From contig CANPZG010000002.1 in NCBI GenBank assembly GCA_947588765.1, positions 9,794-73,793 of the forward strand: a DNA stretch of 64,000 nucleotides. Direction: 5' to 3'. A program made the translations under genes and the position numbers. How positions within the stretch are numbered: the first letter of the stretch is position 1; each line of letters begins with the position of its first letter. The notes under the pieces are model-generated. The model was not told the DNA's origin. It was given only the letters and a program-made list of their open reading frames with translations, and ran no database searches. The DNA is from an uncultured Bacilli bacterium (GTDB lineage Bacteria; Bacillota_I; Bacilli_A; RF39; UBA660). This document shows positions 3,972 through 54,706 of the stretch, piece by piece.

Positions 3972-5860
3972 GTGTGCCGTGCATGGCATATATCTAGTTG
4001 GTGAAAGACCAATACACGCATAGGTATCGATGAAGTGTTAGGGAAGCACAAAGCATTAACAGTGATGTTAGGGCTAAAGGAAGTGTGGAACAAAATCGAG
4101 GGCTAACGAACAGAAACTTACTATAAGGCTATATAAACGGATAAGGTTGCTTAACAAACTAAAGTCCAAAAGATACTCGTAACTTTATATAGTAAAGTAA
4201 GTAGCTAATCGAGGAAAGATATATGTCTTACCGCGGGAGGTCTCATAGACATGAAAGTCAGGGAAACGACGAGGAGTACAAGGACAAGTAATGGTCGAAA
4301 AAGGTTTACTATGAGAAGTCAGCCGAGGTCGTAGTACTAGTTAGTTAGGAAGGACTGAATAATTTGTAGTTTTTACTACTGAAATTGGAATAGGTTAAAG
4401 TCAGAATAAATAAAAGGAAGAGTACCAAGCGTAACTTGGGAACGTGCCTCAAAAGATGATTAACCTATGAGCGAAATTAGAAAGGTGGAAACAGATATGG
4501 AACTTTTAGAGAAAGTACTTTCCAAAGACAATCTAAACAATGCCTATAAGCAAGTTTACAAAAACAAAGGAGCAAGTGGCGTCGACGGAGTAACAGTAGA
4601 CGAATTATTTTCTTATATCAAAGAACATAAGGAAGAGATACTTTATCAAATAAGAAATAGAAAATATAAACCACAACCAGTAAGAAGAGTATATATTCCA
4701 AAAGAAAACGGGAAACTTAGGAAACTAGGAATACCAAATGTCATAGATAGGGTATTACAACAAGCAATAGTACAAGTCTTAACCCCAATATATGAAGAAC
4801 AATTTTCTAATAATTCATATGGATTTAGAATAGGAAGAAGTTGTGAACAAGCAGTTATAAGAGCCCTTGAACTATTTAATGATGGATATGATTGGGTAGT
4901 AGATATAGACTTACAATCATTCTTTGATGAAGTAAACCAAGATAAACTAATAGGTATTATAAGAAGAACCATAAAAGATGGAAACCTAGTATCTCTAATA
5001 AGAAAGTTCTTACAAAGTGGAGTAATGGAAAAAGGAGTAATACAAGAAACAAATAAAGGGACACCCCAAGGAGGAAACCTAAGTCCATTACTATCAAACA
5101 TAATGTTAAATGAACTAGATAAAGAATTAGAAGCAAGAGGATTAAACTTTGTAAGATATGCAGATGATTGTCTAATAATGGTAAGAAGTGAAAAAGCAGC
5201 AAATAGAGTAATGGGAAGTATAACAACATTTATAACTAAGAAATTAGGACTAAAAGTAAATGTAGAAAAGAGTAAAGTAGCAAGACCTAATCAAATTAAA
5301 TACTTAGGTTTTGGATTTTACAAGAAAATTAATCAAAGTAAATGGAGACCAAAGCCACATATTAAATCAATGGAAAAATTTAAAACTAAAATACATGATA
5401 TACTTATAAGAAGTAGAAATGTAAAACTAGATACAAGATTAATTAAATTGAAACAAATAATATATGGATGGGTCAACTATTTTAAAATTGCAGACATGAA
5501 AGTATTTCTTAAGGAAATAGATAAATGGATAAGACGAAAACTTAGAGTTATCATATGGAAACAATGGAAAAAGGTAAGGAAAAGATATACTTGCCTCAGA
5601 AAACTCGGCATAGGTCATATAGATGCATATATAACAGCGAATGCTAGAAGAGGATATTATCATGTAGCTCATACCAGAGTGCTAGAAACTGCAATCTCAA
5701 AAGAAAGATTAAATAAAAGAGGTCTAGTAAATTCACTAGACCATTACCTAAAAGTTCATGTTATTACAAATTAAACCGCCGTATACCGAACGGTATGTAC
5801 GGTGGTGTGAGAGGGTATCATATCAATAAGTCAAATTATTGAAAATTTACTCTACTCGAT
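3972..5860 (+). mobile_element. Group II intron, class C (IIC)-like, with intron-encoded RT/maturase
   Basis: 5' GTGTG at 3972. A GC-richer structured region runs 3972-4460. Domain V hairpin at 5775-5806 has a CGC triad. Putative domain VI has a bulged A at about 5854. The 3' boundary is approximate (+/-10 nt). Confidence 0.8.
4467..5774 (+). CDS. Group II intron reverse transcriptase/maturase (no endonuclease domain)
   Basis: 435 aa. RT blocks include GVDG, PKxNGKLRxLGIP, TPQGGxLSPLLSN and YADD, followed by the maturase X domain (YGWVNYF). No HNH/En domain follows. Confidence 0.95.
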   Translation: MSEIRKVETDMELLEKVLSKDNLNNAYKQVYKNKGASGVDGVTVDELFSYIKEHKEEILYQIRNRKYKPQPVRRVYIPKENGKLRKLGIPNVIDRVLQQAIVQVLTPIYEEQFSNNSYGFRIGRSCEQAVIRALELFNDGYDWVVDIDLQSFFDEVNQDKLIGIIRRTIKDGNLVSLIRKFLQSGVMEKGVIQETNKGTPQGGNLSPLLSNIMLNELDKELEARGLNFVRYADDCLIMVRSEKAANRVMGSITTFITKKLGLKVNVEKSKVARPNQIKYLGFGFYKKINQSKWRPKPHIKSMEKFKTKIHDILIRSRNVKLDTRLIKLKQIIYGWVNYFKIADMKVFLKEIDKWIRRKLRVIIWKQWKKVRKRYTCLRKLGIGHIDAYITANARRGYYHVAHTRVLETAISKERLNKRGLVNSLDHYLKVHVITN

Positions 5861-25145: not shown

Positions 25146-25366
25146 TGGAAAAATCATTTGAAAATGCTTTAAGTGAATTAGAGGCAATAGTTAAAGAATT
25201 AGAAAGTGGTAATGTCGAATTAGATGATGCCATCAATAAATATACGGAAGCTATGCAATTAGTTAAATTTTGTAATGAAAAATTAAATAGTGCGACTAAA
25301 AAAGTTAATGAAATATTAACAATGGATAATGAATTAAAAGAATTTGATGTTGAAAAAGAAAGTTAG
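25145..25366 (+). CDS. xseB: Exodeoxyribonuclease VII small subunit
   Basis: 73 aa. FENALSELEAIVKELESGNVELDDAINKYTEAMQL is typical XseB. Confidence 0.9.
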   Translation: MEKSFENALSELEAIVKELESGNVELDDAINKYTEAMQLVKFCNEKLNSATKKVNEILTMDNELKEFDVEKES

Positions 25367-25373
25367 GTGTCTT

Positions 25374-26783
25374 ATGGAAGTTAAAGAAATAACTAATCGA
25401 GATGTTGATTTTGCGAAATGGTACACGGATGTTTGTAAAAAAGCAGATCTAGTGGATTATTCTTTAGTAAAGGGAAGTATGATTATTCGTCCACTTGGGT
25501 ATGCTATTTGGGAACAAATGCAAAGTGTTTTAGATCAAAAATTTAAAGAAACAGGCCATGAAAATGTGCAAATGCCTATGTTTATTCCTGAATCTTTATT
25601 AAATATTGAAAAAGAACATGTGGAAGGTTTTGCACCAGAAGTAGCTTGGGTTACTTATGGTGGTAAAGAAAAACTAGAAGAAAGAATGTGTGTAAGACCT
25701 ACCAGTGAAACTTTATTCTGTGAACATTTTAAAAAAATAATTCATTCTTATCGGGATTTACCTCTTTTATATAATCAATGGTGTACCATTGTTAGATGGG
25801 AAAAAACAACGAGACCATTTTTAAGAAGTAGAGAAATCCTTTGGCAAGAAGGACATACTATGCACGCAACAAAAGAAGAAGCTAAAGCTGAAACTTTAAG
25901 AATGTTTAATATTTATAAAGACTTTCAAGAAGAATATTTAGCTATGCCAGTTATCACGGGTAAAAAAACCGAAAAAGAAAAATTTGCTGGTGCGGAAGAA
26001 ACATATACTATTGAAGCAATGATGTATGATGGTTATGCTTTACAAAATGGTACTAGTCATTATTTCGGCCAACATTTTGCCAAAACTTTTGGTATTGAAT
26101 TTGTTAATAAAGATAATAAATTAGAAACCCCATATCAAACTAGTTGGGGAGTAACTACTCGTATGATAGGAGGACTTATTATGACTCATGGTGATAACAA
26201 TGGTTTAGTTTTACCTCCTAAAATTGCCCCTTGGAAAGTCATAATTATTCCAATTGGCGATGTTACTGAAAAATTAACAGATATTGAAAAACAACTTAAA
26301 GAAAATAATATTACTTACAAGATTGATAATTCTAATAAAACTCCCGGTTTTAAATTCGCGGAAGCCGAAGTTAAAGGTTATCCAATTCGCCTAGAACTTG
26401 GAGCAAGAGATTTAGAAAATAATGAAGTTACTTTAGTTAGACGTGATACTTTAGAAAAAATAAAAGTTTCATTTGAAGATACTCTTAAAACTATTCAAGA
26501 ATTATTAGTTACAATCCAACAAGATATGTATGATAGAGCTAAGGCAAGAAGAGATTCGATGATTTATGATGTTAATGATTATGAAACTTTAAAAGATTAT
26601 GCTATAAATAAACCTGGATTTATGAAAGTTAATTGGTGTGGTAGTGAAGAATGCGAAAACAAAATAAAAGAAGATACAACTTTAAAAACAAGATGTTTAA
26701 TTGAAAATGAAAAAGTAGATGGTAACTGTATTGTCTGTGGTAAAAAGGCTACTACCAAAGTTTATCTTGGAAAACAATATTAA
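25374..26783 (+). CDS. proS: Prolyl-tRNA synthetase, archaeal/eukaryote-like type
   Basis: DFAKWYTDV..., class II motifs and a C-terminal Zn-type CGSEEC...CIVCG. Start placed at ATG 25374 behind AGGTG; the ORF-track start at 25344 overlaps xseB. Confidence 0.9.
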   Translation: MEVKEITNRDVDFAKWYTDVCKKADLVDYSLVKGSMIIRPLGYAIWEQMQSVLDQKFKETGHENVQMPMFIPESLLNIEKEHVEGFAPEVAWVTYGGKEKLEERMCVRPTSETLFCEHFKKIIHSYRDLPLLYNQWCTIVRWEKTTRPFLRSREILWQEGHTMHATKEEAKAETLRMFNIYKDFQEEYLAMPVITGKKTEKEKFAGAEETYTIEAMMYDGYALQNGTSHYFGQHFAKTFGIEFVNKDNKLETPYQTSWGVTTRMIGGLIMTHGDNNGLVLPPKIAPWKVIIIPIGDVTEKLTDIEKQLKENNITYKIDNSNKTPGFKFAEAEVKGYPIRLELGARDLENNEVTLVRRDTLEKIKVSFEDTLKTIQELLVTIQQDMYDRAKARRDSMIYDVNDYETLKDYAINKPGFMKVNWCGSEECENKIKEDTTLKTRCLIENEKVDGNCIVCGKKATTKVYLGKQY

Positions 26784-28939: not shown

Positions 28940-29251
28940 ATGGAAAGTAAAAAATTTAAAATGATAGATGAAGGATTTAAATGTATTTTATGTGGTGAAA
29001 TGGTTGAACCTTTAAAGTATAGTGCCAGAGATCATTGTCCCTATTGTTTAACTAGTATCCATATTGATATAAACCCTGGTGATAGATTAAATGAATGTAA
29101 AGGTATTTTAAAACCCATTGATATTGAAAAATATAAAGATACTTTTAAAATAATATATAAATGTGATAAATGTGGTATGATTCATAAAAATATCATGGCT
29201 AGTGATGATGATATGGATATGATAATTAATTTATCGAAAAAGGAGAAGTAA
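28940..29251 (+). CDS. RNHCP-domain zinc-ribbon protein
   Basis: FKCILCGE...ARDHCPYCLTSIHID...CDKCG fits the RNHCP domain pattern. ATG 28940 sits behind AGGTG. Its stop (TAA, 29249-29251) overlaps the polA ATG (29251) by 1 nt. Confidence 0.65.
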   Translation: MESKKFKMIDEGFKCILCGEMVEPLKYSARDHCPYCLTSIHIDINPGDRLNECKGILKPIDIEKYKDTFKIIYKCDKCGMIHKNIMASDDDMDMIINLSKKEK

Positions 29252-31809
29252 TGAAAAAGTTAATTTTAGTTGATGGAAATAATTTAATGTTTCGTTCTTA
29301 TTATGCAACAGCCTATAATGGCAATTTAATGAAAAACTCTAAAGGGTTTCCCACGAATGCATTATATGGTTTTGTATCTATGATTAATAAGATTATGGCT
29401 GAAGAAAAACCAGTTTATATGGCTGTGGCTTTTGACATTGGTAAAAACTTTCGCAAACAAGAATACGACTTTTATAAAGAAGGAAGAATTGCTACTCCAG
29501 AAGAATTAAAAATGCAAATGCCGGTAGCACGCGAAATATTAGATGCGATGAATATTAAGCACTTAGAACTTGCTCCATACGAAGCAGATGATATAATTGG
29601 TACTTTAGTAAAAATGACAGAAAGTGATAAAGATTTTGCCTCAACTATTGTTTCTAGTGATAAAGATTTACTTCAACTTATAAGTGATGAAACGGAAGTA
29701 AAATTACTTAAGCAAGTTGGCTTTATTAGATATAATAAAGAAACTTTTAAAAAAGATTATGGGATTGAACCAATAAGAATAATTGACTTAAAGGCTTTGA
29801 TGGGCGATGCATCAGATAATATTCCAGGAGTTAAAGGAATTGGTGAAAAAACAGCTTTAAAATTATTACAAGAATATGGAACTTTAGAAAATCTATATGA
29901 TAATGTCGATAAAGTAGGAGGCAAACTTCAAGAAAAGTTAGTTAATGATAAAGAAAATGCCTTTATGAGTAAAAAGATAGCTACTATATATCGTGATGTA
30001 CCACTTAATATTAATCTTGAAGATCTACATGTTGGTAAAATAAAAGCAAGGGTGGCTAAATTATTTCAAGAATTAGAGTTTTTCTCTTTACTTAAAACAA
30101 TGATGATACCGATTAAAGATGAAGAAACTGAAGTTGAAGTAAAAGAAATTGACAATATTGATGATATCACTTTAGATGATACAATCTCTTTATATTTAGA
30201 ATTAGATGATAATAATTATCATTTAGCCCATATTTTAGGTTTAGCTATTAAAGATTCTAAAGGAAGCTATTTTATAAGAAATAATATTGTGGAAACATTA
30301 GAAAAGATAAAAAATAAAAATATTATTACTTATGATGCAAAGAAAATAATTTGTAATACGGGAGTAAAAATTAATTGTACTTTTGATGTCATGATAGCAT
30401 CATACCTATGTAATTATATTAATAAAGAAGATATCGCATTTTTAATGCAACAATTTAATTTAAAAATTGACTTTTTCGATTCTTTTATGAAATATACTGA
30501 TCGAGATGAAAAAATAGCTCAATACTTAGGTCAAAAAGTAGACTTTTTATATAATATTAAAGAAACTTTAGAAAATAAATTAAAAGAAAATAATTATTAT
30601 GATTTATTTACCAATATTGAAATGCCTTTACTTTATGTTCTAGCGGATATGGAACAAACGGGAATCAAAGTTGAAAAAGATGTTTTAGAAGAAATGAAAG
30701 TTGAATTGAATGCTCGAATTGAAGAAATAAAAACTGAAATATATAATTACGCTGGGGAAGAGTTTAATATATCTTCACCTCGCCAACTTGGAGAAATATT
30801 ATTTGATAAAATGCATTTAGCTGTAGGTAAAAAGAATAAAACTGGTTATAAAACGGATGCTAAAGTTTTAGAAAAACTAGTTGGGAAACATCCAATTATT
30901 GAAAGTATTTTATTATATCGAAATTTAACTAAAATATATTCTACTTATATTGAGGGCTTGGAAAACTTTATCTTAAAGGATGGTAAAGTTCATACTATTT
31001 ATAAACAAACTTTAACGAGAACTGGTAGACTTTCATCAGTTGATCCTAATTTACAAAATATTCCCGTAAGAGAAGAATTAGGTCGTAAAATAAGAAAAGC
31101 TTTTGTGCCAGTCGGTGATGTCTTTTTAAGTGCTGATTATTCCCAAATAGAATTAAGAATACTAGCTCATATCTCTAATTGTAAACCATTAATTGATGCT
31201 TTTAAAAATGGGGAAGACATTCATACCAAAGTAGCAAGTGATATCTATGGTATACCAGCGAGTGGAGTAACTAAAAATATGCGAAGAACAGCTAAAGCAG
31301 TAATATTTGGGATAGTCTATGGTATAAGTGGGTTTGGCCTTGGGGAAAACTTAAATATTTCACGAAAAGATGCCGATGAATTTATCAAGAAGTATTATGC
31401 TTTTTATCCCGAAGTAAAAGAATATATGGATAGTATTATTTTAAAAACTCATGATTTAGGTTATGTAACAACTTTGTTTGGTCGGAGAAGAGTAATCGAT
31501 GAAATAAATAATACTAATTATATGATTAGATCAATGGGTGAAAGAATGGCTTTAAATACGCCAATTCAAGGCACTAGTGCGGATATTATGAAACTAGCGA
31601 TGATTAATGTTTATAATCGCTTTAAGAAAGAACATATCAAAAGTAAAATTCTTTTACAAGTTCACGATGAAATAATTATTGATTGTAAAAATGAAGAACT
31701 AGATAAAATAAAACAAATAGTTAAAGAAGAAATGGAAAATGTATTTCCTTTGAATGTACCATTAAAAGTAGAAATAGATACTGGTTCTAATTGGTATGAT
31801 ACAAAATAA
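29251..31809 (+). CDS. polA: DNA polymerase I
   Basis: 852 aa. 5'-nuclease N-domain (LILVDGNNLMFRSYYA), then polymerase motifs DYSQIELRILAH, RRTAKAVIFGIVYG and QVHDE. Confidence 0.97.
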   Translation: MKKLILVDGNNLMFRSYYATAYNGNLMKNSKGFPTNALYGFVSMINKIMAEEKPVYMAVAFDIGKNFRKQEYDFYKEGRIATPEELKMQMPVAREILDAMNIKHLELAPYEADDIIGTLVKMTESDKDFASTIVSSDKDLLQLISDETEVKLLKQVGFIRYNKETFKKDYGIEPIRIIDLKALMGDASDNIPGVKGIGEKTALKLLQEYGTLENLYDNVDKVGGKLQEKLVNDKENAFMSKKIATIYRDVPLNINLEDLHVGKIKARVAKLFQELEFFSLLKTMMIPIKDEETEVEVKEIDNIDDITLDDTISLYLELDDNNYHLAHILGLAIKDSKGSYFIRNNIVETLEKIKNKNIITYDAKKIICNTGVKINCTFDVMIASYLCNYINKEDIAFLMQQFNLKIDFFDSFMKYTDRDEKIAQYLGQKVDFLYNIKETLENKLKENNYYDLFTNIEMPLLYVLADMEQTGIKVEKDVLEEMKVELNARIEEIKTEIYNYAGEEFNISSPRQLGEILFDKMHLAVGKKNKTGYKTDAKVLEKLVGKHPIIESILLYRNLTKIYSTYIEGLENFILKDGKVHTIYKQTLTRTGRLSSVDPNLQNIPVREELGRKIRKAFVPVGDVFLSADYSQIELRILAHISNCKPLIDAFKNGEDIHTKVASDIYGIPASGVTKNMRRTAKAVIFGIVYGISGFGLGENLNISRKDADEFIKKYYAFYPEVKEYMDSIILKTHDLGYVTTLFGRRRVIDEINNTNYMIRSMGERMALNTPIQGTSADIMKLAMINVYNRFKKEHIKSKILLQVHDEIIIDCKNEELDKIKQIVKEEMENVFPLNVPLKVEIDTGSNWYDTK

Positions 31810-31831
31810 TTAACAAAATTAAATTATTTAG

Positions 31832-31860
31832 TTGACAAATTGTAAATCTTATGATAAGTT
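31832..31860 (+). promoter_or_regulatory. Promoter of the toxI-toxN locus
   Basis: TTGACA (31832-31837), 17-nt spacer, extended -10 TGATAAGTT (31852-31860). Confidence 0.65.
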
Positions 31861-31885
31861 TATATTGCATATAGAAATATATGCC

Positions 31886-31996
31886 AAAAGCGGTGAATCC
31901 AGCCATTAAGTGGAAACTAAAAAAGCGGTGAATCCAGCCATGAAATTGGAAGCTAAAAAAGCGGTGTACCCGGCCATTAAACTGGGAACTAAAAAA
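31886..31996 (+). ncRNA. toxI: ToxI-like antitoxin RNA: three tandem 35/36-nt repeats
   Basis: GCGGTG starts at 31890, 31925 and 31961 (periods 35 and 36 nt). Each unit ends in ACTAAAAAA. The array lies directly upstream of a ToxN/AbiQ gene, the canonical type III TA layout. Confidence 0.8.
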
Positions 31997-31999
31997 GTA

Positions 32000-32030
32000 G
32001 GATTAGAGAAAACACTCTAATCCTTTAATT
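32000..32030 (+). terminator. Intra-operon terminator between toxI and toxN
   Basis: GGATTAGAG (32000-32008) / CTCTAATCC (32015-32023), followed by TTTAATT. Confidence 0.7.
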
Positions 32031-32049
32031 AAAATAGGGGGAATTAATT

Positions 32050-32556
32050 ATGTTATTTAAATTTTTAATTGTTAATGTTGATAGTAATTATTGTGATTTT
32101 TTAAGAAAGTATGATACTAAAGTACCATATAATAAGGCTAATAAGGAAACTAGACCTTTTATTGGAGTTTTATTTTGGATAGGAGATATTGAATATTTTG
32201 CTCCTTTATCTAGTCCTAAAGCTAAACATATAAAGATGCGTAATACTATTGATTTTGTTAAAATTGATGGTGGTAAATTAGGAGCAATTAATTTTAATAA
32301 TATGATTCCAGTAAAAAAAGGAAACTATAAACTAGTTAATTTGGATGTTCCAAATGCTGATAAATATATTACTATGATAAAGAAACAATTATTATGGTTA
32401 AATAAACATAGACTTCAAATACTTTTTAAAGCTGATAGATTGTATGATTATTATCTAGCGAATCTATTACCAGATAACATTAAAAATCGTTGTTGTAATT
32501 TTAAATTATTAGAAGAAAAGTGTGAAGAATATAATAAAAATATTGTTAATACCTAG
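32050..32556 (+). CDS. toxN: Type III toxin-antitoxin endoribonuclease, ToxN/AbiQ family
   Basis: 168 aa. YCDFLRKYDTKVP, RPFIGVLFWIGDIEYFAPLSSPKAKH, GAINFNNMIPV and CCNFKLLEEK each align with Pectobacterium ToxN blocks (YIEYLKEFDDKVP, AFIGIV..YLAPLTSPK, GLINLKFMIPI, CNFSLLEEK). Confidence 0.9.
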   Translation: MLFKFLIVNVDSNYCDFLRKYDTKVPYNKANKETRPFIGVLFWIGDIEYFAPLSSPKAKHIKMRNTIDFVKIDGGKLGAINFNNMIPVKKGNYKLVNLDVPNADKYITMIKKQLLWLNKHRLQILFKADRLYDYYLANLLPDNIKNRCCNFKLLEEKCEEYNKNIVNT

Positions 32557-32591
32557 TGTATTATATATGCATAAGTAATTATGCTAAAAAA

Positions 32592-32655
32592 GTAGGGATA
32601 CCTAACCGTCAAATAGGAACTAAAAAAGATACTAGAGAGCACACTCTAGTTTTTA
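32592..32655 (+). ncRNA. Orphan ToxI-like single repeat plus hairpin terminator (downstream of toxN, upstream of mutM)
   Basis: The 36-nt GTAGGGATACCTAACCGTCAAATAGGAACTAAAAAA (32592-32627) aligns with the toxI units. It is followed by hairpin ACTAGAG (32631-32637) / CTCTAGT (32644-32650) and TTTT. Confidence 0.55.
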
Positions 32656-32717
32656 GTTGCAAAACTATCTTTTGTTTTAGTAAAAATAATTGTATAATTA
32701 ATAGGGAAGTGATAATA

Positions 32718-33536
32718 ATGCCAGAAATAGCAGAAGTTGAAACAGTAAGAAACACTTTAAAAAGACAAATATTAAATAAGAAAATTAAAAGTGTAAATGT
32801 AAGATATAATAAAATGATTGAAAGTGATATTAATACTTTTGAAAAAGGCTTAATTGGTGATGAATTTATTGATATTAAAAGAAGAGGAAAATGGTTAATT
32901 TTTGAATTACATAATCATTATTTATTATCTCATTTAAGAATGGAAGGTAAGTTTTTCTTAAAAAATAGTGCTGAAGAAATAATTAAACATGAACATGTAA
33001 TTATAACATTTATAGATAATACGGATTTAAGATATCATGATACTAGAAAGTTTGGCAGAATGAATCTAATTAAAAAAGAAGATTTAGAAAATACGGAATG
33101 TATTAAAAAACAAGGTTTAGAACCGGGAGATAAGAATTTAACTAGTAAGTATTTATTAACTAAATTTAAAAATAAAAAGTTACCAATAAAAACTGTATTA
33201 TTAGATCAAACAATTATAAGTGGCTTAGGAAATATCTACGTTAATGAAGTATTATTTTATGCAAAAATTAACCCTTTAAAAGAAGCTGGCAAAATTACAG
33301 ATAAAGAAGCTAATTTAATTGCTGAAGGAGCAAATACTATCATTAAAGAAGCGATAAAAATGGGTGGTACAACAATTAAAAGTTATACTTCATCTTTAGG
33401 GGTAACTGGTCGTTTTCAAAATAAATTAAAGGTTCATAAAAAAGAAGGACAACCTTGTCCTATCTGTAATACACCAATCGAAAATGTTAAAATTAATGGT
33501 CGAAGTACTTATTTTTGCCCTCAATGTCAAAAGTAA
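32718..33536 (+). CDS. mutM: Formamidopyrimidine-DNA glycosylase
   Basis: True start is MPEIAEVETV (catalytic Pro2) at 32718, behind GGGAAG and a TGTATAAT -10 (32691-32698). C-terminal zinc finger CPICNT...YFCPQCQ. The ORF-track start at 32556 is an extension. Confidence 0.93.
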   Translation: MPEIAEVETVRNTLKRQILNKKIKSVNVRYNKMIESDINTFEKGLIGDEFIDIKRRGKWLIFELHNHYLLSHLRMEGKFFLKNSAEEIIKHEHVIITFIDNTDLRYHDTRKFGRMNLIKKEDLENTECIKKQGLEPGDKNLTSKYLLTKFKNKKLPIKTVLLDQTIISGLGNIYVNEVLFYAKINPLKEAGKITDKEANLIAEGANTIIKEAIKMGGTTIKSYTSSLGVTGRFQNKLKVHKKEGQPCPICNTPIENVKINGRSTYFCPQCQK

Positions 33537-52457: not shown

Positions 52458-52522
52458 ATCTTTTTTATTGCAATAAATTTCTTTTTCTTTTATAATAATT
52501 TTTTATAAAGGAAGTGTAATGT

Positions 52523-53653
52523 ATGAATTTAAAAAATATTAATTTATATAAATTAAGAACTCTATTAGAAAAAAATAACAATTATGTTGAACTTAATAAT
52601 TTAGTTACAGAAGTATTAACTGATATTTATGGGAATAATACCAAAATTGATTACAATTTTTTTCATGATTTAAAAATTAGTGATAGTAATATTAAATTTC
52701 TTCTTGATTTAGAACGGCAAAGTAAAAATGATAGTGAGAGATTAAAAGTTAAAAAAATATTTTTAACTTTAGCCATTAGTGGGGCTCAACCTAATGAATT
52801 ATTTGTGAAATATGCTAAAGAAAATTCCCAAGATTTAGAAATTCTTTCAACTTTGTTTGTTCGCGATTTAGTCACTCTAGAGGAAATAAATGAGGCAATA
52901 AATTCTACGGATAGTATTGCTAAAATATGTTTTGAAGTTCTAGAAACTGGTCTTAAAAAATTTGATTTAAATGTTGTAAAGGAAAGAATAATTTATTTAT
53001 TAAAAAATGGAAATGTGACGGCTCAAGATTATAAATATCTTTTTAAGTTTTTAAAAGAAAATGAAGATAAAGATATTGATATTATTGATGAAGTAATAAA
53101 TAAAAAAGAAGCTTATCCATATTTATATAATTATTTCAAATATGTATTTACAATTTATACAGGAAAAATTAATTTTGATGAAAATCTTAAATATATTGAA
53201 CCTACATCTAAAAAAATGGTATATTGTTTAAACGAATATCCAATGTTATATAAACTTTATAATTTATTTGTTTATCAAAGAGAAGATAAAACAATAAAAT
53301 ATTCTTTTAATAAATTTAAATGTAGTGAATATAGAGAAATAGATGATCTAATTCTTTTAATTGAAAAATTAGAAAGAGAAATTTTAACAGGTATAAAAAA
53401 TGGGGTAGTAACTGATGTAGCCTTATTTTTAGAAATATTTAATAATCATAATGATAAAGCAACATTTGATGAAATAAAAACAGAAATTATGAATGCTTGG
53501 ATTAATAATGAAAATATGATAGCTTATGAAAAATATAAATATTTAATATTTAGAGATTATTTAAATTATTATGATAGTTTTACTAAAAAAATAGATGAAA
53601 CTTATGAAGAAGAAATAGAGACTCTAAAAAGAAAAAAGATTAATATTAATTGA
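52523..53653 (+). CDS. Hypothetical protein (376 aa)
   Basis: Clean ORF behind AAGGAAG. No motif recognised. Confidence 0.55.
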   Translation: MNLKNINLYKLRTLLEKNNNYVELNNLVTEVLTDIYGNNTKIDYNFFHDLKISDSNIKFLLDLERQSKNDSERLKVKKIFLTLAISGAQPNELFVKYAKENSQDLEILSTLFVRDLVTLEEINEAINSTDSIAKICFEVLETGLKKFDLNVVKERIIYLLKNGNVTAQDYKYLFKFLKENEDKDIDIIDEVINKKEAYPYLYNYFKYVFTIYTGKINFDENLKYIEPTSKKMVYCLNEYPMLYKLYNLFVYQREDKTIKYSFNKFKCSEYREIDDLILLIEKLEREILTGIKNGVVTDVALFLEIFNNHNDKATFDEIKTEIMNAWINNENMIAYEKYKYLIFRDYLNYYDSFTKKIDETYEEEIETLKRKKININ

Positions 53654-53705
53654 CATATTCTAAAAAAAGGTTATATTATAGATACATAAGAAATTATGTT
53701 AAAAA

Positions 53706-53770
53706 GTGGTGTTTCCCGGCCATATACTAGGGACCTAAAAAAGCTAGAGATTTTCTCTAGTTTTGTTTTG
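53706..53770 (+). ncRNA. Orphan ToxI-like single repeat plus hairpin terminator with its own promoter-like element
   Basis: GTGGTGTTTCCCGGCCATATACTAGGGACCTAAAAAA (53706-53742) aligns with toxI unit 3. Followed by hairpin CTAGAGA (53744-53750) / TCTCTAG (53754-53760) and TTTTGTTTT. TTGACA at 53650-53655 lies upstream. Confidence 0.55.
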
Positions 53771-53827
53771 GTATCTTGCAATAACTTTCAATTTATTTTA
53801 TAATTCTCTTATAAAGAGGTAGTAAAA

Positions 53828-54706
53828 ATGATTATAGGTTCACATGTTAATTTTGGGGTTAATCAATTATTAGGTTCAACAGAACAAGCTTTAAGTTATG
53901 GTGCTAATACTTTTATGTTTTATACGGGAGCACCTCAAAATACAATAAGAAAAGAAATTGATATGAATTTAACTAATGAAGCATTAAATTTAATGATAAA
54001 TAAAGGAATTGATATTAATAAAGTTATTTGTCATGCTCCATATATCATTAATTTAGGTAATAAAGAAAAGCCAGAAGCTTGGGATTTTTCCGTTAATTTT
54101 TTAAAAAGGGAAATAGATCGAATAGAGAAGTTACATGTTAAATATATGGTTTTACATCCCGGCAATTATTTAAAACAAGAAGTTTCCGTGGCTTTAGACA
54201 ATATCGTAGAAGGATTAAATAAGATATTAGAACATAATGATAAAGTTATGATATTACTTGAAACTATGGCCGGCAAAGGAACAGAATGTGGAAGAAGTAT
54301 GGATGAAATAAAATATATTATTGACCATGTAATAAAGAATGATAGTGTTGGTGTTTGTCTTGATACATGCCACTTAAATGATTCTGGAGTTGACATTGCT
54401 AATTTTGATTCCTATCTAGAGGACTTTAATCAAAAAATCGGCATTGAGAAAATAAAATGTGTGCATGTTAATGATAGTAAAAATGAACTTGGTTCTCATA
54501 AAGATCGGCATGAAAATATTGGCCTAGGTACGATTGGTTTTGATAACTTAATGAATGTTATAAATAATGAAAAATTAAAAGATGTTCCTAAAATATTAGA
54601 AACACCTTATGTTGGTGATAAAGCACCATATAAATATGAAATAGCAATGATTAAAAACAATACCTTTAATTCTCATTTAATTGAAGATATAACTAAAGAA
54701 ATCTAG
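53828..54706 (+). CDS. nfo: Endonuclease IV
   Basis: IGSHV, HAPYIINL, VLHPG, LETMAGKG, CLDTCH and HVNDSK motifs. Own promoter: TTGCAA (53776-53781), 17 nt, TATAAT (53799-53804). Confidence 0.95.
   Translation: MIIGSHVNFGVNQLLGSTEQALSYGANTFMFYTGAPQNTIRKEIDMNLTNEALNLMINKGIDINKVICHAPYIINLGNKEKPEAWDFSVNFLKREIDRIEKLHVKYMVLHPGNYLKQEVSVALDNIVEGLNKILEHNDKVMILLETMAGKGTECGRSMDEIKYIIDHVIKNDSVGVCLDTCHLNDSGVDIANFDSYLEDFNQKIGIEKIKCVHVNDSKNELGSHKDRHENIGLGTIGFDNLMNVINNEKLKDVPKILETPYVGDKAPYKYEIAMIKNNTFNSHLIEDITKEI

Follow-up and report, generated by a model that had tools for sequence, protein, structure and literature searches.

Can an antitoxin gene of the toxI type stand in a bacterial chromosome without its toxin gene, and could its RNA still find a toxin to act upon? 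The question is raised by a short module in a 64,000-nt stretch of DNA from an uncultured Bacilli bacterium (GTDB lineage Bacteria; Bacillota_I; Bacilli_A; RF39; UBA660; assembly GCA_947588765.1, contig CANPZG010000002.1, positions 9,794 to 73,793 of the forward strand), the whole of which is hereafter called the window and supplies all positions given without a locus name. The module lies directly upstream of nfo, the gene for endonuclease IV, and holds a single repeat resembling those of ToxIN, a toxin-antitoxin system of type III in which the antitoxin ToxI is an RNA that binds the toxin, ToxN. The closest toxN is 21 kb off and has a three-repeat toxI gene of its own. We favour, with a probability of about 0.6, the reading that this solo toxI is a complete antitoxin RNA gene of the ToxIN (ToxN_Bt-like) kind, with one repeat and no toxN, which derives from a toxIN cassette and is a possible partner of ToxN in trans.

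Structure of the nfo-side module

All elements of the module are found on the plus strand, between an open reading frame (ORF) of 376 aa (ORF376, 52523-53653) and nfo (53828-54706, plus strand; Pfam AP_endonuc_2, 3e-53), the start of which is 85 nt downstream of the solo unit. The promoter (53650-53679) has a -35 box TTGACA (53650-53655), which shares bases with the stop codon of ORF376, and two -10 candidates, TATATT (53672-53677) and TATTAT (53674-53679); with 11 of 12 consensus matches, these are the best promoter-like sites of the region in a consensus scan. The transcript is predicted to begin at or close to a leader hairpin with a GNRA loop, ACATAA-GAAA-TTATGT (ACATAAgaaaTTATGT, 53684-53699), which is present in both the minimum free energy fold and the centroid fold and had been missed in the first reading of the window. 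It is followed by an A-tract (AAAAA, 53701-53705), read from the sequence as a candidate ToxN processing site where cleavage would take place, and by the single 37-nt ToxI-type repeat (GTGGTGTTTCCCGGCCATATACTAGGGACCTAAAAAA, 53706-53742), whose six A residues at the 3' end form a second candidate processing site. The module closes with an intrinsic terminator (53744-53769), identified by terminator scan and fold and composed of the hairpin CTAGAGA-TTT-TCTCTAG (53744-53760) and a T-tract (TTTTGTTTT); 0.1 such sites would be expected by chance in the region according to the scan. The same segment is also terminator-like on the minus strand, owing to the A-tract that precedes it. Outside the RNA gene, nfo has its own promoter and ribosome-binding region (53776-53823, plus strand, with TTGCAA-17-TATAAT at 53776-53804).

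No ORF of 40 aa or more covers the module, and no toxN fragment was detected beside the solo unit by tblastn. An earlier, sequence-only reading of this DNA had proposed that a single-repeat toxI-like gene stands alone here, with a promoter and a terminator of its own but no adjoining toxN, and this proposal is borne out. Its coordinates and sequences for the promoter, unit, hairpin and nfo promoter were all confirmed on re-check, and the independent transcript which it had put forward is likewise predicted, at about 85 nt, from the promoter-to-terminator layout.

The opposite strand has a promoter-like site as well (TTAACA-16-TATAAT, 11/12, at 53675-53702), which shares sequence with the leader hairpin and is directed into the 3' end of ORF376; it probably arises as a side effect of the AT-rich palindromic sequence.

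Homology to ToxI repeats and toxIN operons

In a hidden Markov model (HMM) search built from the three units of the resident array only, the nfo unit ranks straight after the array units themselves (E=8.6e-5 in 64 kb), and the unit of a second solo module, situated on the mutM side of toxN, comes next (E=1.8). A covariance model of 40 family repeats, run on the 64-kb window with filters off, matched only the five known units (43-63 bits, array unit 2 being partial), with the nfo unit at 50.1 bits and the next match at 15.7 bits; related genomes were searched with a degenerate repeat pattern, as described below. Since only five units occur in 64 kb, three of them within the toxI array, the motif is not a dispersed repeat. 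A generic or repetitive extragenic palindrome-like element, an option raised by the sequence-only reading, is ruled out by this count and by the clusters of other genomes, where 59 of the 78 that could be judged adjoin an intact toxN (among the matches listed). Rfam holds no family for the repeats, whether the whole window is searched at the gathering threshold or both loci at permissive E-values.

A family profile was derived from 113 distinct repeats adjoining intact toxN genes, with the consensus G-Y-GGUG-WWY-CC-R-GCCAU-(U)AAAU(U)-GG(G)A-NNU-A6. All near-invariant positions of these repeats are retained in the nfo unit, which deviates at variable ones only. The central hairpin of the family covaries, alternating between U-A and C-G at the outer pair (columns 14-33) and between C-G and U-A at the third pair (columns 17-31), and 80% of the cells in the helix are paired, as against at most 48% when the partners are slid. 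The three central C-G pairs of this hairpin can be formed by the nfo unit, and the outer U-A and inner G.U/G-C pairs are possible if one A is bulged, as read by eye.

The likeness extends to the sequences ahead of the repeat. The solo promoter matches the TTGACA-17-TATATT of the toxIN operons at L026, L127 and L018 (loci in other genomes are numbered with the prefix L) position for position, and the operons L026 and L127 can be aligned with the module over the whole succession of TTGACA, a spacer of 16-17 nt, TATATT, a further 6 nt or so and ACATAAGAAATTATGT. The 16-nt motif of the solo leader hairpin (RCATAAGNAATTATGY) is likewise found directly upstream of the ToxI arrays in L005, L018, L026, L076 and L127, as well as of the solo unit L117. 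Within the window, a GNRA-capped 5' hairpin stands just ahead of the first A-tract in all three modules (GCATATAgaaaTATATGC at 31867-31884, GCATAAgtaaTTATGC at 32569-32584 and ACATAAgaaaTTATGT at 53684-53699); such a hairpin, at the start predicted for toxI transcripts, is conserved in this subfamily, and no description of it was found in the literature consulted on toxI. Its role may be to stabilise the RNA or to serve as a signal for processing. Because repeat, promoter and leader are all homologous to those of toxIN operons, the module is very probably a genuine, bona fide toxI gene with one repeat and no toxN.

Its nearest relatives are of another genome. Among the matches listed, the repeats of the toxIN array L093 are nearest to the nfo unit (33/37), followed by unit 3 of the resident array (31/37). 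The sequence-only reading had described the unit as very close to toxI unit 3; this is indeed the nearest resident repeat, but the L093 repeats are nearer. Identity to resident units 3, 1 and 2 is 0.84, 0.76 and 0.70, respectively, compared with a median of 0.91 (5th percentile 0.81) for repeats within one array and of 0.83 for repeats of different genomes. A recent duplication of a resident array unit was ruled out, as the unit resembles the array no more than repeats of unrelated genomes resemble each other.

The resident toxIN cassette and the mutM-side module

The resident cassette follows polA, which ends at 31809. Its toxI gene (31832-32026, plus strand) consists of a promoter with the -35 box TTGACA (31832-31837), the leader hairpin (31867-31884), three repeats (31890-31996) and a terminator hairpin (about 31999-32024); the array comprises 3.1 copies with a period of 36, the repeats being spaced 35-36 nt. 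The adjoining toxN (32050-32556, plus strand) encodes a type III toxin endoribonuclease of 168 aa (Pfam ToxN_toxin 2.9e-50; PADLOC AbiQ 2.3e-36) with 1971 detected homologues, the nearest solved structure being 4ATO, the ToxN of Bacillus thuringiensis (ToxN_Bt; E=6.5e-23). No second toxN was found in the 64-kb window.

Between toxN and mutM lies the second single-unit module (32569-32650, plus strand), composed of a leader hairpin (32569-32584), a divergent unit (32591-32626) and a terminator (32631-32650). Its unit breaks otherwise invariant family positions, with AGGG for GGUG and ACCGU for GCCAU, and no toxN-linked array of such mutM-type units was found in any scanned collection. The module is kept between toxN and mutM in L003 (6030-6140) and L004 (640-725), the former having two mutM-type units, while it is not present at the other polA-toxIN-mutM loci L018, L123 and L124. 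Compared to the window, ToxN is 74%, PolA 77% and MutM 79-80% identical in L003 and L004. The unit itself is 33/36 identical (92%), the four-fold degenerate sites of the flanking genes 61-78%, and two of the three substitutions are compensatory, changing CCU/AGG to CCC/GGG in the hairpin. The mutM-side unit gives better evidence of selection than the nfo unit, and its conservation with compensatory change suggests that at least some solo units are functional.

The polA-toxIN-mutM order (window 29251-33536) is kept in L003 and L004, L018, L123 and L124, with PolA 68-78% identical. At these loci divergence is faster in ToxN (52-74% identical) than in the neighbouring genes, and the toxN of L018 is split by a frameshift. 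That the gene order is kept across lineages indicates that this chromosomal type III system has long been inherited vertically.

ToxI clusters in other genomes

At least 120 loci were obtained when one genome per species was scanned with a degenerate repeat pattern, and these were compared as 8-kb blocks and counted per cluster, not per genome. Real ToxI repeats are present at no fewer than about 85 loci, nearly all of them in gut metagenome-assembled genomes labelled Clostridia, Bacilli or Clostridium sp. CAG; the remaining listed loci are chance matches in unrelated high-GC genomes. The clusters were sorted by their content within 900 nt downstream, for which 78 had enough sequence to judge. 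An intact toxN follows at least 59 of these (45 with three repeats). In at least about 10 clusters toxN is deleted, frame-shifted or fragmentary, with clear deletions in L015, L049, L062, L067 and L104, and at least seven clusters outside the window have no detectable toxN (L011, L027, L078, L086, L106, L125 and L128). Five of these seven were scored by the HMM as single units (among the matches listed), one of them, L078, having two more degenerate units when read by eye. Solo units with full promoter, leader and terminator are present in at least seven other genomes.

The stages of such a loss can be followed at one orthologous site, upstream of the orthologues of the window ORF 25338-26780, where the cassette is intact in L089, frame-shifted in L063, internally deleted in L062 and L104 and reduced to a toxN-free array in L125. 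The toxIN cassettes of this bacterial group commonly lose toxN and keep toxI. The sequence-only reading had also considered an ancestral small RNA family from which the arrays arose. This idea is opposed by the decay series, which runs from intact toxIN through toxN fragments to toxI alone, and an evolution of arrays from single units is countered by L117, a one-repeat copy of the L127-type three-unit toxI gene with near-identical promoter, leader and terminator. As only 320 nt are available downstream of it, L117 was left out of the class counts. At the natural locus L088 (2634-3280) a single ToxI repeat is followed by an apparently intact toxN, so that one repeat can be a toxin's natural complement, and a tandem array may not be obligatory in this subfamily.

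Three patterns searched in IMG/VR returned nothing beyond chance matches. In the Joint Genome Institute (JGI) metagenomes, the mutM-type pattern gave 0 matches and the nfo/L093-type pattern three chance matches only, in high-GC DNA.

A solo unit with leader and terminator-like hairpins is also found in Massilimicrobiota timonensis f30 (L128, 5511-5542, in block 2576001-2584000 of NZ_AP031415.1). The species is in culture and its genome complete, the 8-kb block contains no toxN, and the organism is a possible experimental model.

History of the recO-nfo locus

In order to trace the origin of the module, the locus was compared with that of relatives. The order era, recO, nfo and penicillin-binding protein (PBP) gene is kept in L130 and L132 (Nfo 74% and 71% identical, respectively), with a gap between recO and nfo of 40-100 nt that contains neither ORF376 nor the module. 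In L131 (Nfo 71% identical) an ORF of 358 aa, weakly related to ORF376 (34% over 94 aa), abuts nfo, again without a module. Since the module is absent from these nearest other relatives it has no long-term conservation, and it is young, having recently arrived between recO and nfo in this lineage only. Further evidence of how it arrived is that the promoter and ribosome-binding region of nfo occur twice, as direct repeats of 48 nt (52468-52515 and 53776-53823, 77% identical). The two copies bracket ORF376 together with the module, a segment of 1.3 kb, while the insert-free relatives have one copy. This bracketing suggests that the nfo promoter was duplicated by insertion or recombination, in one event or two.

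A close strain, L133, at 95.4% nucleotide identity, has the module with promoter, leader, A-tracts and terminator stem intact. Its unit differs from that of the window by one substitution and a 2-nt deletion, both in the loop-proximal segment, which is the family's most variable in sequence as well as in length. Between the two strains the neighbouring non-coding segments diverge by 1.5-7% and the genes by 4-6%, too few differences to separate constraint from drift.

ORF376, which lies upstream of the module within the bracketed segment, has no significant match in Pfam, PADLOC or NCBIfam and no homologue outside its own cluster among 5.8 billion proteins; an exhaustive HMMER search gave one marginal match (E=6e-4). 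It was considered as a partner toxin and rejected, having no family match and a sole relative at the locus, in L131, with no unit behind it.

Possible function and alternative explanations

The mechanism envisaged for the solo toxI gene begins with its own promoter, which would give an RNA of about 85 nt, predicted to begin with the 5' GNRA hairpin, to continue with the 37-nt repeat between its two A-tracts and to end in the terminator. ToxN, encoded at a distance of 21 kb, would excise the repeat at the A-tracts and become occupied by it, as by its own repeats. The excised repeat would then add a small, independently transcribed share to the antitoxin pool, or would cross-protect against related ToxN toxins, and nfo would not be regulated by the module. 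ToxN_Bt cleaves A/AAAA (PMC5086642), and because the A5 and A6 flanks of the unit fit this specificity of ToxN_Bt-type enzymes, the resident ToxN could excise the repeat. Single repeats have served as antitoxins in over-expression assays (PMC3401426, PMC3475682); in other settings, 2.5 ToxI_Pa repeats or 1.8 antiQ repeats were required, according to a 2016 review of type III systems.

Several observations weigh against a complete antitoxin gene able to act on ToxN. Besides the module's absence from L130, L131 and L132, the units of the window and of L133 differ in 3 of 37 columns, a divergence no lower than that of their surroundings. Relative to unit 3, the nfo hairpin has a G.A mismatch or a bulged A; the unit alone folds no better than shuffled sequence; and single substitutions can abolish ToxI activity (PMC3475682). 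The unit is also no nearer to the resident array (0.70-0.84) than are pairs of repeats from different genomes (median 0.83), which leaves cognate recognition unassured; with identity only at this between-genome level, cross-recognition by the resident ToxN is plausible but not assured. In addition, the solo terminator resembles the recO-nfo intergenic terminator of L132, so that it may be the original terminator between recO and nfo and older than the toxI-derived part, which may be limited to about 90 nt (promoter, leader and unit). That the nfo unit measurably neutralises the resident ToxN is somewhat doubtful. It is rather unlikely that solo toxI genes are more generally maintained by selection as chromosomal, trans-acting type III antitoxins in gut Firmicutes, which would tune or cross-neutralise the ToxN of the resident cassette or of mobile elements after loss of the cognate toxN, with the mutM-type unit as a second conserved ToxIN RNA partner. 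Probably the module was left over from a toxin-antitoxin cassette or is a spare copy of part of one, and it may have the role of a spare antitoxin.

The antitoxin reading has to be weighed against that of an inert relic, in which the module is toxIN debris left by a deletion of toxN or by illegitimate recombination, maybe transcribed, without effect on ToxN or on fitness, and decaying. The lineage-specific occurrence of the module would fit such debris, as would the clear intermediates of toxN decay in other genomes, a unit conserved no better than its neighbours between the window and L133, the mismatch or bulge in the nfo hairpin, and the 2-nt deletion in L133, which takes out inner stem pairs. 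However, promoter hexamers, leader hairpin, both A-tracts, invariant unit positions and terminator stem are intact in both strains, the differences between which are confined to the segment that is most variable across functional arrays; at least seven other genomes also have complete solo units, including promoter, leader and terminator, and the sister module on the mutM side is conserved with compensatory change. A relic is held to be rather unlikely. The RNA might instead be the antitoxin of a different toxin, either a second ToxN (e.g. L093-like) encoded outside the window or a plasmid or phage ToxN, and would then be an anti-addiction or immunity element rather than a buffer of the resident toxin. 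The nfo unit has no special relationship with the resident array, the nearest repeats (33/37, among the matches listed) are those of the L093 array, whose ToxN shares only about 40% identity with the resident one, and the toxN-less pseudo-ToxI of phage PhiTE does counter ToxN (PMC3475682). This explanation is nevertheless quite improbable, as there is no second toxN in 64 kb, as searches of viral and JGI metagenome contigs turned up no nfo-/L093-type repeats, and as 33/37 versus 31/37 is a small gap in identity.

A regulatory role in cis has far less to recommend it. Both solo modules stand directly 5' of repair genes on the same strand, and read-through of the terminator would put ToxN sites in a long 5' leader, through which the expression of nfo (and of mutM, via the sister module) could respond to ToxN activity. 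Yet the unit is followed by a strong terminator and a separate nfo promoter, and the same promoter serves relatives without the module; the nfo upstream region is homologous in L132, for instance, which has no module. As its promoter is conserved in module-less relatives, nfo does not depend on the module. The special link to base-excision repair proposed in the sequence-only reading also falls away when other genomes are considered, since none of about 87 sampled ToxI clusters adjoins nfo (among the matches listed) and the solo units elsewhere flank unrelated genes (metK, pfkA, mutL/miaA, a sigma-factor gene and others). The association was accordingly not accepted as generally valid. Of nine toxN-less clusters, 2-3 have DNA-repair genes beside them (nfo/recO; mutL; mutM via the toxIN site; among the matches listed), too few to judge, and the adjacency to mutM is accounted for by the toxIN cassette itself, which holds the old polA-toxIN-mutM position. 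The solo toxI gene probably does not regulate DNA repair, and a cis-regulatory leader is extremely improbable.

Relation to known systems

The family closest to the solo gene is the toxI of ToxIN systems, i.e. ToxIN_Bt of B. thuringiensis, ToxIN_Pa of Pectobacterium atrosepticum and AbiQ/antiQ of Lactococcus. These have a repeat of about 36 nt bounded by an A-rich motif that is cut by the toxin, a core folded as a hairpin/pseudoknot, a promoter that is constitutive and, behind the repeats, a terminator; in the solo gene these features are read from the DNA, its core being a putative one. The architecture GGUG ... CC-R-U ... GAACU-A6 is likewise found upstream of toxN on a plasmid of Fusobacterium polymorphum, whose ToxN is 46% identical. 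Repeat homology, A-rich boundaries (A5 on the 5' and A6 on the 3' side) and promoter/leader are thus those of a ToxI, whereas the tandem array and the terminator-separated position 5' of toxN are lacking: there is one repeat, compared to the 2.8-5.5 described, and nfo is downstream instead of toxN.

The nearest parallel in function is the pseudo-ToxI of phage PhiTE, a phage-borne anti-defence locus of 1.5 repeats which works in trans after expansion to 4.5-5.5 repeats (PMC3475682). Both are short toxI-like loci without toxN, and the pseudo-ToxI is self-expressed and counters ToxN in trans. Unlike it, the solo gene is chromosomal, lies between recO and nfo, and is part of a genome with its own toxIN. 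No phage genes are found near the module, its flanks being era, recO, nfo and the PBP gene in the same order as in relatives, and no repeats matching the solo unit came up in IMG/VR. Orphan antitoxins and anti-addiction modules of types I and II are similar in that the antitoxin outlasts the adjoining toxin, stems from the decay of a cassette and may cross-neutralise; they are proteins or antisense RNAs, however, while here the antitoxin is of the toxin-binding RNA type.

In the open-access full-text literature, no chromosomal orphan antitoxin of type III was found to have been reported from bacteria, and orphan toxI genes go unmentioned both in a survey of type III systems from 2012 and in the 2016 review. 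The remark in the sequence-only reading that orphan single-repeat toxI genes are undescribed is thus upheld as far as the open-access literature goes. As type III systems are sought via the toxin gene and then the repeats ahead of it, toxI genes without a toxin escape current surveys. Solo toxI RNAs, provided that they are expressed and bind ToxN, would shift the threshold at which ToxIN fires in phage infection or after loss of a cassette, and would be a chromosomal counterpart of the pseudo-ToxI trick of phages. If they are inert relics, they would be a useful caveat for annotation, with little biological consequence. The decay series is a natural record of the death of type III cassettes, in which the toxin is lost first and the antitoxin persists. 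The findings are of relevance to specialists in toxin-antitoxin systems and phage defence, for whom a solo toxI is an expected product of decay unless function is shown.

Apart from these systems, the window also contains group II intron domains at 4056-4355 (Rfam RF02001, 131 bits; RF01998, 42 bits).

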